Source: a virus (lineage: Duplodnaviria > Heunggongvirae > Uroviricota > Caudoviricetes). From it: a stretch of DNA of 25,865 nt. Of this stretch, positions 1-3,493 are shown piece after piece. The notes beneath the pieces are model-generated. The model saw only the letters and a program-made list of their open reading frames with translations, ran no database searches and was not told the DNA's origin. Positions within the stretch are counted from its first letter, which is position 1; each line of letters opens with the position of its first letter. Location of the stretch: positions 1 to 25,865 of IMG/VR virus record IMGVR_UViG_2582580933_000011; one strand, given 5' to 3'. The translations under genes were made by a program, and so were the position numbers.

Positions 1-131
1 GAAGACAGTGACCTCCGTCTGGCCGGTTCGGATTCGTACCTCGCAGAGGTCTTTCCTCGTTACCAGTGCCGTCACAATGACGGTTAAACAGATGACGATC
101 AGAGCGATTAACATCGCTTTTTGCTGCTTCA
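1..131 (-). CDS. hok: Hok/Gef-family type I toxin (small membrane toxin); 3' end cut by window start
   Basis: Minus-strand ORF with ATG at 129-131 preceded by GGAG. Manual translation MKQQKAMLIALIVICLTVIVTALVTRKDLCEVRIRTGQTEVTVF... fits the Hok/Gef pattern (single TM helix, conserved RKxLCE and TGQTEV motifs). A mok-like overlapping frame starts at ATG 188-190 in a different frame, as in hok/mok/sok loci. Confidence 0.75.
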
Positions 132-313
132 TAGCCTGCTTCTCCTTGACCTTTTGGTCGGTAAGAGGCTAATCTACGTATGCTAAGCATAGATATGGCC
201 TCAGATTAATGTTAAGCGTCTTGCAGGACGCGTAATGTTATCTGGGGCTTTCTTCTATCTGCTTTTCTGGTAATGCCTGAAGCAGATAGCCTCAAGCACC
301 CGCAACGATTGTA
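132..313. promoter_or_regulatory. hok mRNA leader region; expected location of mok start and a sok-type antisense RNA/promoter
   Basis: Inferred from the canonical architecture of hok/sok loci (antisense RNA overlapping the mok/hok leader). No specific promoter was mapped from sequence. Confidence 0.3.
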
Positions 314-559
314 TCAATGTCTGGCTTTTTTTCTATAGAAATCACCTGGAAGGGTGAATATCCACATCAGAAGAAATGTTGCAGCAAACATGATCCCTAA
401 TGGCCAGATTGCGCCAAAGAAAATCCATACTAAGATCTCCTCTGCTCGTTCTTTGCGGTCGATATCGACAAGCATTTTTCGGCTGATTATGTATACACAG
501 AAGCCAATACAAACATATCCTGCAAAAGCGAACGCTAACTGTAAAAAATCAGATTGCAT
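314..559 (-). CDS. small membrane protein (two predicted TM helices), unknown function
   Basis: ORF 314..640 (-). An internal ATG at 557-559 has a GAGG upstream and would give an 81-aa product with hydrophobic helices (LAFAFAGYVCIGFCVYII, ILVWIFFGAIWPLGIMFAATFLLMWIF). The longer start at 640 overlaps the repL-like stop. Confidence 0.4.
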   Translation of the reverse strand: MQSDFLQLAFAFAGYVCIGFCVYIISRKMLVDIDRKERAEEILVWIFFGAIWPLGIMFAATFLLMWIFTLPGDFYRKKARH

Positions 560-609
560 CTCCGACCTCAAACTGAAAACACCAGGTGACTCCAGATTAG
601 AGCAATCTA

Positions 610-1455
610 TCACCCTCTGAATCCTGCCGGTATACCCCATTGTTCGTTATCTTTATTTTTGGCTAAAACCGCATTAAGAGCTTCGTTTACCGTCATGCAA
701 TGCGGCAGATTATCGAAGTTTGATACCCCGCCAATATCAGGAGAACGCTTGTTCTTCAGGTAAGCATATTTCCGCGCTGCCGCCTCTACTTTCTGCTTGA
801 ACTCATGTTTTTGAGCGCGTTTTTTGGATAACCGCAGATTGTCAGCCTTTGCTTTTGCCTCAGCGATCCATGAAGTCAATTTTTTGAGTCTGGTCGTTCC
901 GGCACCGCCGGAAACTGATCTTTTTGTTTTTTTAACTTGTGACTTCTTATTCTTTATTGCCACGTCATCCTGACAGGGGGAGGGGGTATCATTTTGACAT
1001 GGGGGTGTGGATAAAAAATTAAATAAAGCCAATGTCTTAGCGAGAACAGCTTTAACCTTGGTTGCCGCTGAAGAGATCTTTAATTTGCTTTCAATCAGCG
1101 CATTTTTGGCTTGTTGTGCGAAGGCCAAAAAGGATGGTGTAAACCGGTACAGGTTAGCGCGACGTTCACGGTGATCGCCGATAACAATCTCTACAGACAG
1201 AATTCCTTTGTTTACAGCTTCACGGAATGTACGAACGACGGTTGATTGGCTATAACCAGTTTCTGCCGCGATCAGGCGGTGAGGCTTGTGAATGAAGTAT
1301 TCACTGGTTGTTGCCGCGAGATTTGCACATTGCGACAGGATATGCCCGGCGCTACGGGATAGACCGGAGTGTGTTACAAAGCAGGCCAATTCATAGCCAG
1401 AAAAAGTAAAATCGCTCATCGTTATACAGCTCAGGAAAGTGACTTTAGCCAGCAT
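610..1455 (-). CDS. repL: RepL-like lytic-replicon initiator (P1 L-replicon type)
   Basis: 281-aa ORF immediately downstream of kilA on the same strand. N-terminal HTH-like region, very basic Lys-rich C-terminal half. Length and position match the kilA-repL unit of P1 as recalled. The start codon is ambiguous (no strong SD; an alternative ATG lies 12 codons in). Confidence 0.6.
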   Translation of the reverse strand: MLAKVTFLSCITMSDFTFSGYELACFVTHSGLSRSAGHILSQCANLAATTSEYFIHKPHRLIAAETGYSQSTVVRTFREAVNKGILSVEIVIGDHRERRANLYRFTPSFLAFAQQAKNALIESKLKISSAATKVKAVLAKTLALFNFLSTPPCQNDTPSPCQDDVAIKNKKSQVKKTKRSVSGGAGTTRLKKLTSWIAEAKAKADNLRLSKKRAQKHEFKQKVEAAARKYAYLKNKRSPDIGGVSNFDNLPHCMTVNEALNAVLAKNKDNEQWGIPAGFRG

Positions 1456-1484
1456 TACAATGCTGGTGGTTCTTACTACGTCTG

Positions 1485-2285
1485 TTAGCGCGTTGCCGCG
1501 ACAGGTACCAGCACACCAGCATCAAGCAATCGCTTCATCAGCCACTGCTGACCTTTGCCGGTTATACGAGTCGTGAAAGAAATCCTGCTTCCATTGCTTG
1601 TATCGATCACGGTTTCTTTAAGGGTGAAATACCCACGGGATATGTATTCTTGTTTGGGGACGTTTCTGCGTTCACCGGTTGCGATCAGAATTCCGTTATC
1701 ACGCAACCAGGTGAAGAGATAGTTTTGGCCCAGGCCGAGCACTTTGGCATAGTTGCCGATTAGAACCCCGCTGGCGGTAGCAACGCGTTCGGCGAATTCG
1801 ACTTTAGGTGCATCCATCAGCATTTTTTGCTCCAGCCGTTGCTTTTGCTCTGCCAGGTCAGCAGCCAAACGGAGAGCTTCTGGGAGGCTCTTCGGAATAG
1901 CAGGTTGTAATCTTCCAGCTCGATAGTCGATAAATGTCTGGTTTACCTTCAGCCGAAACGCGGGAGAAATCCAACCAGCGTACTCCACTGCGAGCAATTC
2001 ATGGGCAAAAGTGCCGCCGCCACGGCCTTCGAACGAAACTATGCAATTCTGCATAGTTTCTTTTTCAAGCTCTTCGATGAGCTGTTTGGCTGACAGCGTT
2101 CTTAGCCATTGAGCTGGCGCTTTATGGGCACCGAGTCCGCTCGCTCTGTGTAGAGCATTAAGGTTATAACGGCCAGCGCGGTCGGTCGTAATTTCAACAC
2201 CACAAATAACAGGCAGGGTGGTTGAAGGATCGACATTTTGATGAAGGTTTGATATATTCATATCCGCATTGAATGTTTGTTGCAT
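1485..2285 (-). CDS. kilA: KilA protein (KilA-N domain + C-terminal KilAC antirepressor-type domain)
   Basis: 266 aa. N-terminal KilA-N signature (RYNLNALHRASG ... FEGRGGGTFAHELLAVEYAGWISPAF). C-terminal region (LPEALRLAADLAEQK ... GNYAKVLGL ... TGKGQQWLMKRLLDAG) is about 65% identical to the C-terminus of the adjacent Ant ORF. GGAG 7-8 nt upstream of the ATG at 2285. Confidence 0.8.
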   Translation of the reverse strand: MQQTFNADMNISNLHQNVDPSTTLPVICGVEITTDRAGRYNLNALHRASGLGAHKAPAQWLRTLSAKQLIEELEKETMQNCIVSFEGRGGGTFAHELLAVEYAGWISPAFRLKVNQTFIDYRAGRLQPAIPKSLPEALRLAADLAEQKQRLEQKMLMDAPKVEFAERVATASGVLIGNYAKVLGLGQNYLFTWLRDNGILIATGERRNVPKQEYISRGYFTLKETVIDTSNGSRISFTTRITGKGQQWLMKRLLDAGVLVPVAATR

Positions 2286-2449: not shown

Positions 2450-3493
2450 TTAACCTATTGCTACTGGTTTTAACAAACCAGCATCAAGTAGCTTGCGAGT
2501 TAACCACTGCTGGCCTTTACCCGTTAATTGGGGCGTCAGCCGTATCTGGTAGCCATTTTCATCATCCAGCACCACTTCTTTCACCGTGAAATACCCGGCG
2601 TTAATGTACTGCTGGCGCGGTACGTTTTTGCGCGCACCAAAAGCCATGAGAATGCCGTTCTGGCGCAACCATGAGAAAAGGGCGTTTTGCTTAAGTCCAA
2701 CGACCTTTGCAAAGTTCCCGATCAGGATTCCATTGGCCACTGATACCCGGTCGGCAAAATCGACTTTAGGGGCTGCGGCCACCAGCTGTTGTTCCAGCTG
2801 CATTTTCTGTTCTGCCAACTCGGCAGCCAGGCGTAGAGCTTCTGGTAATGTTTGGGGGATCGATGGGGCAGGGGAGTTTGCCTGCTGCAATTCTTCCAGT
2901 TTGTCGATCAGCGAACGGCGGACGGCTTTTGATTCGCGTGCGGCGACTCGCAGGGCTTGTTTGTAGGTCATGGTTATGACAACCATAGGCGTACCGCCAC
3001 CTGGCGGCACGGTTGCACTTTTTGTGTAACCGTCCTCACCTTCTAATTCGTCGAGTATTTTTTCGATGAATTTGTTGTTCCGAACCTCTGGTTCCCCACA
3101 TAACTTACGCGCTTCATTGACCATCTTTAACAGTGTCAGGCTGTCGATTGTGTCTCCGGTGTTGGGGATGATATTCACGGCTGGTGCTGGCGTAGCTGAC
3201 GTAACAGGTGCTGTTTTTTCAACATTCAAATTATTACCGGTCATTCTATGTGCCTCCTTTCTCATTTCTGCTGCCACTGTTGCGTAACGTAGACGTCCTT
3301 GTTCAATCAAATAATCCCTGATCTCGGCTATCAGTAGCTTGTTGATCACAGCCTTATCTGTTCGGGTATAAAAACGTCTGGTTATCATGAAATAGTTGGC
3401 AATTGCGCCGGGGATCTCCCGTGTCGGCATACAGGCAGTGTGCAGGGCGATCGCTTCGGCTATGTCATTACGGGTGACGAGAGGTTTTTTCAT
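2450..3493 (-). CDS. ant1: antirepressor Ant1 (347 aa) with an in-frame internal start giving Ant2 (264 aa); C-terminal KilAC domain
   Basis: KilAC-type C-terminus (LPEALRLAAELAEQK ... GNFAKVVGL ... TGKGQQWLTRKLLDAG). Internal ATG at 3242-3244 is preceded by AGGAGG (plus 3253-3258) at 8-nt spacing. The ATG at 3491-3493 overlaps the stop of the upstream icd-like ORF (ATGA). Matches the P1 immI ant1/ant2 arrangement. Confidence 0.85.
   Translation of the reverse strand: MKKPLVTRNDIAEAIALHTACMPTREIPGAIANYFMITRRFYTRTDKAVINKLLIAEIRDYLIEQGRLRYATVAAEMRKEAHRMTGNNLNVEKTAPVTSATPAPAVNIIPNTGDTIDSLTLLKMVNEARKLCGEPEVRNNKFIEKILDELEGEDGYTKSATVPPGGGTPMVVITMTYKQALRVAARESKAVRRSLIDKLEELQQANSPAPSIPQTLPEALRLAAELAEQKMQLEQQLVAAAPKVDFADRVSVANGILIGNFAKVVGLKQNALFSWLRQNGILMAFGARKNVPRQQYINAGYFTVKEVVLDDENGYQIRLTPQLTGKGQQWLTRKLLDAGLLKPVAIG

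Follow-up and report, generated by a model that had tools for sequence, protein, structure and literature searches.

A hok/mok/sok-type toxin-antitoxin cassette at the edge of a P1-like phage-plasmid segment, next to repL

The first 313 positions of the window (the whole stretch of 25,865 nucleotides analyzed) very probably hold a hok/mok/sok type I toxin-antitoxin cassette of the HokD/HokW subgroup. We interpret it as an accessory second addiction module in the spot between repL and bplB of a P1-like phage-plasmid, with a killing mechanism predicted by homology to that of plasmid R1. The identity of the locus as hok/sok is far beyond chance. A Hok/Gef-type toxin and an overlapping mok leader frame with its own Shine-Dalgarno (SD) sequence, both features of the hok/sok family, are present in the window, as is a structured leader with the tac, ucb, mok SD, and dcb elements of that family (Table 1).

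On the minus strand, the toxin frame encodes MKQQKAMLIALIVICLTVIVTALVTRKDLCEVRIRTGQTEVTVF and contains no stop up to the window edge. Its 44 codons match the Pfam family HOK_GEF (PF01848) with an E value of 3.8e-20 and 71.7 bits (cut-off, 22), covering profile positions 1 to 39 of 42. This is the only Pfam match among the ORFs checked in window 1-700. The final seven codons (TAYESER) and the stop fall outside the window, on its left side, and were read in a relative, the P1-like phage record MH422554 (L001). In relatives, the complete Hok is 51 amino acids long and matches PHROG 251 with an E value of 4.9e-32, and the identical protein (WP_001313475.1) is named by PGAP as type I toxin-antitoxin system toxin HokD. 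The block CAAGGAGAAGCAGGCTATGAAG at the hok SD is near-invariant among the aligned loci, with one sequence deviating at one base. GenBank record MH422554 and PHROG 251 label the 51-amino-acid Hok ORF "MokW." In relatives the Tyr47 codon of hok stands in a UACG context, approximately 9 to 12 nt left of window position 1 (L001 2994-2991).

The mok-like frame stays open for 63 codons to the window edge, reading through the hok start; in MH422554 it comprises 68 codons and ends with a TGA just ahead of the hok stop. Its SD pairs with ucb in the predicted full-length fold as well as in the consensus fold, and its ATG is kept in 44 of 45 unique leader variants. With the offset computed over all leader variants, mok is out of frame with hok in all unique variants of the P1 type (25 of 25), whereas in the 933W type the two are in frame. 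The frame change between the types amounts to one extra base in AAAGGTCAAGG (minus strand, window ~149-150). The same base also shifts the sok -35 element, from TTGCCT with a 17-nt spacer in the 933W type to TTGACC with an 18-nt spacer in the P1 type.

Table 1. Features of the hok/mok/sok-type locus, in window coordinates
Feature	Position	Strand	Remarks
hok, partial	1-132	minus	ATG 132-130; 44 of 51 codons inside the window
mok-like leader frame	1-190	minus	ATG 190-188, offset by one base from hok; translation
Structured hok mRNA leader, tac to hok AUG	127-301	minus	Rfam RF01794
hok SD, AAGGAG	142-147	minus	inside the mok frame; direct reading
sok promoter (predicted)	146-175	plus	-35 TTGACC 146-151, 18-nt spacer, -10 TAATCT 170-175; direct reading
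dcb, AGCCUC	165-170	minus	complementary to mok SD; direct reading; overlaps the sok -10 region of the opposite strand
Sok RNA (predicted)	182-252	plus	putative ends; complementary to mok SD and start region
mok SD, GAGG	199-202	minus	8 nt upstream of mok ATG; direct reading
ucb / anti-SD, AGCCCC	244-249	minus	sequesters mok SD; conserved in the Rfam alignment
tac, GGGUGCUUGAGG	290-301	minus	putative mRNA 5' end; first positions of RF01794; invariant in aligned loci
hok promoter	308-335	minus	extended -10 TGATACAAT 316-308; weak -35 TAGAAA 335-330

The leader is matched over the full length of the Rfam model (109.8 bits, gathering score 59, E 4.9e-26), and this is one of only three gathering-level Rfam matches within the window. 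Although RF01794 is named "sok antitoxin," its consensus spans the hok mRNA from its 5' end to the hok AUG. Since the consensus starts with tac and ends at that AUG, the strand that the model recognizes is that of the hok mRNA leader; Sok is complementary to the middle portion of this leader. Rfam ceN48 and a plus-strand "sok" match at 17 bits were set aside as sub-threshold chance matches. The hok promoter is called in a generic sigma-70 scan of window 1-700, with 9 of 12 matches and a TG preceding the -10. The -10 hexamer occupies 313-308, the stop of the upstream ORF lies at 314-316, and the predicted +1 of the hok mRNA is G301, 7 nt past the -10.

Folding brings these elements together in a recognizable form. 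In both the minimum free energy (MFE) and the consensus folds ucb is paired with GAGGC, and the block TTAGCCTCTTAC at dcb is invariant among aligned loci; the role of dcb is assigned as described for R1 (PMC9841398). For the 384-nt full-length RNA of L001 (-150.2 kcal/mol, z -7.8), nucleotides 2-12 are predicted to pair with the 3' CCUCAAUGCACC and the mok SD with AGCCCC, a predicted fold that corresponds to the closed full-length state known from R1 (PMC9841398). The MFE structure of the 3'-trimmed mRNA shows a 5' metastable-type hairpin and does not reproduce the canonical open form, the mok SD still being paired with ucb, and the MFE alone is not decisive on this point. In related loci, leader helix 13-22/40-49 shows two compensatory pairs; 97.5% of its cells are paired, compared with 30 to 52% in a control with the 3' partner slid. 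The two pairs are seen only when this alternative helix is specified, and the RNAalifold consensus contains no compensatory pairs. Pairing between tac and fbi lies beyond a covariation test, because tac is invariant in all collected loci.

The predicted sok promoter occupies the place immediately ahead of where sokW is annotated to start in phage 933W. It was not called in the generic sigma-70 scan of window 1-700, its -10 fitting the consensus at 3 of 6 positions, and its placement thus rests on direct reading and on homology with the annotated sokW. Homologous to the 71-nt sokW annotated in 933W, the predicted Sok RNA would fold into a single-stranded 5' tail of approximately 15 nt, a long hairpin at 197-249, and a U-rich tail (-34.4 kcal/mol, z -5.7). 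When P1-type, 933W-type, and Rac/Qin-type loci are compared, strong variation in the leader is confined to window 176-198, which covers the mok start and the Sok 5' tail. This variable recognition stretch is consistent with locus-specific Sok recognition without cross-talk.

An earlier sequence-only reading of this DNA had proposed a hok/sok-type module made up of a near-complete Hok/Gef toxin cut by the window edge and an overlapping mok-like frame, and had pointed to the plus strand at about 140-230 as the place to look for sok. The toxin, the frame, and the module all hold up on the evidence given above, and the predicted sok promoter and RNA fall almost where they were expected. The extent that it gave to the locus, 1-313, proves accurate, ending between the hok -10 and the stop of the upstream ORF.

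By homology with R1, the cassette would work as follows. The weak constitutive promoter with its extended -10 would supply a stable full-length hok mRNA, kept closed by tac-fbi pairing, with ucb occluding the mok SD. Slow shortening from the 3' end would strip fbi and open the mRNA, while abundant, short-lived Sok would bind the mok start region, the duplex being degraded by RNase III, as for R1 (PMC9841398). Upon plasmid loss, Sok would be lost first, mok would be translated and hok translation coupled to it, and the 51-amino-acid Hok membrane peptide would kill the plasmid-free cell. The cassette would in this way add a second addiction system to phd/doc. Not every hok locus behaves so: a recent preprint cites earlier work in which some chromosomal hok loci failed at postsegregational killing (bioRxiv 10.1101/2025.08.07.668861).

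Compared with hok/mok/sok of R1 (parB), the type system, the locus shares a small hydrophobic toxin and a mok that starts upstream, out of frame, and covers the hok SD. It also shares the 5' tac, ucb/anti-SD, mok SD, and dcb, a predicted Sok antisense to the mok start whose promoter overlaps dcb, and, as seen in relatives, a 3' fbi predicted to pair with tac. It differs in that the toxin belongs to the HokD/HokW subgroup and the Sok recognition sequence is another one; moreover, its host replicon is a phage-plasmid, whereas R1 is a conjugative IncF plasmid.

Closer relatives are hokW/mokW/sokW of the Stx phage 933W and of VT2-Sakai and the Rac-type prophage hok/mok, which are ~90 to 94% identical at the nucleotide level over window 1-304/313 and have the same leader architecture and fbi. 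In the 933W type, however, the in-frame mok extends Hok at its N terminus, the mok-start region and the 5' tail of Sok have another sequence, and the C terminus reads VDYESEK in place of TAYESER. The locus also resembles K-12 hokD (relF) and the PGAP HokD family, in that an exact coding 60-mer is common to it and to IMG/VR loci whose products end in TAYEPEE, which we take to be the ending of K-12 HokD. K-12 hokD is said, in work by Pedersen and Gerdes from 1999, to lack a promoter, mok, and sok of its own. Unlike hokD as so described, the window locus has its own predicted promoter, mok, and sok. Some K-12 hok loci have lost canonical components by rearrangement (PMC12214031).

Over ~70% of its length, the window is 96 to 98% identical to P1, P7, RCS47, and others; one relative is typed IncY. 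Judged by sequence, the window is a segment of a P1-like (Punavirus, IncY) phage-plasmid. The gene for RepL, the lytic replicon protein, lies at 610-1455 and adjoins the hok/sok side, with two KilA/Ant genes coming next, and in relatives bplB stands on the other flank of the locus. The locus fits the accessory region that P1-like elements carry between repL and bplB, the genome being collinear with that of P1. In P1 itself this interval contains rlfA, rlfB, and pmgF, and on the window side hok/sok and a small ORF are found instead; the reference phages P1 and P7 are without the hok/sok locus and match the window only from base 596 on. The small ORF (314-640, minus strand), between repL and hok, has 108 amino acids from its first ATG and 81 in the PGAP version. 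On visual inspection it looks hydrophobic and membrane-like; it matches PHROG 3772 (unknown function) and no Pfam family, and its stop overlaps the hok promoter. Loci with low ungapped identity upstream, considered as candidates for P1-type hok outside P1-like elements, proved to be P1-like ones from which 137 bp (window 432-568) are deleted.

The adjacency to a P1-type lytic replicon that had been read from the sequence is plain, and the further suggestion that the module differs from the phd/doc of P1 needs a qualification. The module is indeed a different one, and P1 and P7 are without it. It is no alternative, however: the nearest full-length relative, a 98.8-kb plasmid, carries phd/doc, repA, parAB, and hokD together, which makes hok/sok an additional addiction module and not a replacement for phd/doc. 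In this relative, the one checked in full, phd/doc lies ~43 kb away, and an ORF and Pfam check of window 1-700 finds no Phd or Doc ORF there. The two modules presumably share a role, to kill or arrest cells from which the plasmid prophage has been lost; phd/doc, in contrast, is a type II protein-protein system, unrelated and located elsewhere on the element.

Nor is the locus unusual. At least 80% of window 1-1500 is contained in ~330 PLSDB plasmids and in 334 of 5,426 complete E. coli genomes, which share the arrangement and have the gene annotated as HokD, and the exact hok-coding 60-mer is present in 68 IMG/VR loci. Megablast places the 313 bases at ~90 to 94% identity in the hok/mok/sok loci annotated in Rac, 933W, VT2-Sakai, and other phages and at 98.9% in P1-like phages (MH422554 is 98.9% identical over window 1-700). 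The locus is 98 to 100% conserved over dozens of P1-like elements, and in the alignment of loci tac, ucb, both SDs, dcb, and fbi are near-invariant. A recent catalog lists thousands of Hok homologues, enriched in prophages and large plasmids (bioRxiv 10.1101/2025.08.07.668861). A literature search for hok in P1-like phage-plasmids specifically, partly crowded by unrelated matches, found no paper. The family is a textbook one: both the system and its mechanism have been documented before, as has its occurrence in phages and plasmids, and the cassette is annotated at the same position in hundreds of records. The identification in itself matters little past correct annotation. It does mean that, at the variable site flanked by repL and bplB, many P1-like phage-plasmids probably carry a second addiction cassette besides phd/doc, one under RNA control. 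This bears on persistence estimates for such plasmids, which are often carriers of resistance genes.

Whether the window copy is in working order depends on its 3' end. In MH422554, the sequence past the hok stop contains a GC hairpin, GGUGGGGAGAGAUCCCCGCC, followed by CCUCAAUGCACCC, the complement of tac; fbi thus lies ~75 nt beyond the left window edge, outside the window. The pairing of fbi with tac appears in the predicted fold of this intact relative, and fbi is retained in most IMG/VR loci. Only two records are 99.9% identical to window 1-1500 (H81/L005 and H82/L077), and both carry IS421 in the hok 3' hairpin. The element, with IS186-like ends CATAAGCGCTAACTTAAGGGTTG, is inserted at GGGGAGAGATCC|C, between the hok stop and fbi, with a target duplication of 10 to 11 bp, and in L005 and L077 it puts fbi 1,374 nt downstream. 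An intact left flank would read without interruption through ...ACAGCCTACGAATCTGAAAGGTAA...GGGGAGAGATCCCCGCC...CCTCAATGCACCC, and an IS-disrupted one would show CATAAGCGCTAACTTAAGGGTTG after GAGATCC. The target is a hairpin of the form GGGG-N6-CCCC just left of window position 1 (L005 2374-2533, L023 7692-7851, and L077).

Other plasmids carry IS421 at the identical site in the opposite orientation, and both orientations at one site point to at least two independent insertion events. Among PLSDB junctions, 217 are intact, 34 are interrupted in one orientation (as in L005 and L077), and 161 are interrupted in the opposite one, counts that may include non-P1 plasmids and clonal oversampling; in IMG/VR, 8 of ~42 P1-type loci are IS-interrupted. 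The share of P1-type copies with an IS at this site accordingly ranges from roughly a fifth (IMG/VR) to half (PLSDB). The P1-type cassette is thus often struck at the same hairpin as K-12 chromosomal hok loci. As in K-12 gef/hokC with IS186, an element of the IS186/IS421 kind just past the hok frame cuts off fbi in the nearest relatives of the window (PMC3562002; PMC12214031), the difference being that here the IS is found on phage-plasmid relatives, in both orientations and at an identical site. The IS186 downstream of gef/hokC is thought to disrupt fbi (PMC3562002), and IS insertions beside K-12 hokA, hokC, and hokE are considered inactivating (PMC12214031; PMC3562002).

We consider it quite possible, though short of probable, that the window copy is likewise a disabled hok locus, with an IS421 just left of the edge uncoupling fbi from the mRNA. 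Such a copy would have no stable inert mRNA reservoir, and hence no postsegregational killing, even though its hok ORF, mok, and sok look intact. Beyond the IS421 in both of the 99.9%-identical records, the frequency of interrupted junctions, and the K-12 precedents, this reading draws on the closeness of L005 to the window. Alone of 69 relatives, L005 is 100% identical over the 253 bases upstream of the shared 60-mer, and it is the only aligned relative with the window allele ACCAGAAAAGC. Against this, the window is a mosaic that no E. coli record covers by more than 87%, so that relatives do not reveal its left flank. Intact copies make up more than half of those on plasmids, and the junction counts on the other side are open to the non-P1 plasmids and clonal oversampling mentioned above. 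Moreover, gef/hokC with its IS186 is still transcribed and still regulated by antisense RNA (PMC3562002).

Beyond target preference, the repeated insertion of IS421/IS186-type elements at one site might be a sign that phage-plasmids are under selection for the uncoupling of fbi and hok; divergent Sok recognition would then keep the copies that survive orthogonal to chromosomal and lambdoid hok. We regard this as quite unlikely. If true, uncoupling would neutralize or rewire a killer module that conflicts with the lytic/lysogenic program or with phd/doc.

The cassette might also be kept mainly for phage exclusion or abortive infection, or for competition with co-resident elements, and not for plasmid retention; when an invading phage shuts off host transcription, Sok would run out and Hok would be set free. 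This we consider unlikely. In its favor, the element already has phd/doc and a partition system, and the confinement of strong leader variation to the Sok recognition region would be expected if co-resident loci avoid cross-talk. However, hok is not enriched near defense systems (bioRxiv 10.1101/2025.08.07.668861), and as the molecular switch would be the same, this reading differs from plasmid retention in selective benefit only.

That the window locus is a decayed remnant or a chance ORF without function, comparable to the leaders in RCS47, SJ46, and vB_EcoM-673R5 that lack a window-like hok ORF, is effectively refuted and very improbable, given that hok is open across all 44 available codons, that no damage is seen in mok, in either SD, or in any control box, and that the locus is so highly conserved among P1-like elements. 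RCS47 (L003 780-960), SJ46, and vB_EcoM-673R5 retain only window 164-313, with the hok promoter, leader, and Sok body. They diverge ahead of the hok SD, and no hok ORF like that of the window was seen there; these stretches resemble what the same cassette would leave behind after losing hok.

As a whole, the window is a mosaic: no phage record reaches 80% coverage at a single location, complete E. coli records cover at most 87%, and the best identity is 98.9% at 82% coverage. Beyond repL follow two antirepressor-type genes on the minus strand, a kilA-like gene with KilA-N and ANT/KilAC domains (1485-2285) and a gene for a 347-amino-acid Ant with a KilAC domain (2450-3493). The P1 immI region is also represented in the window, by a match to the C4 antisense RNA (RF01695; 3759-3844, minus strand, 68.4 bits) and one to the a1/b1 target sites (RF03163; 3913-3965, minus strand, 56 bits). 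Both lie beyond the left (stop) end of a gene that, by position, matches icd of the relatives.
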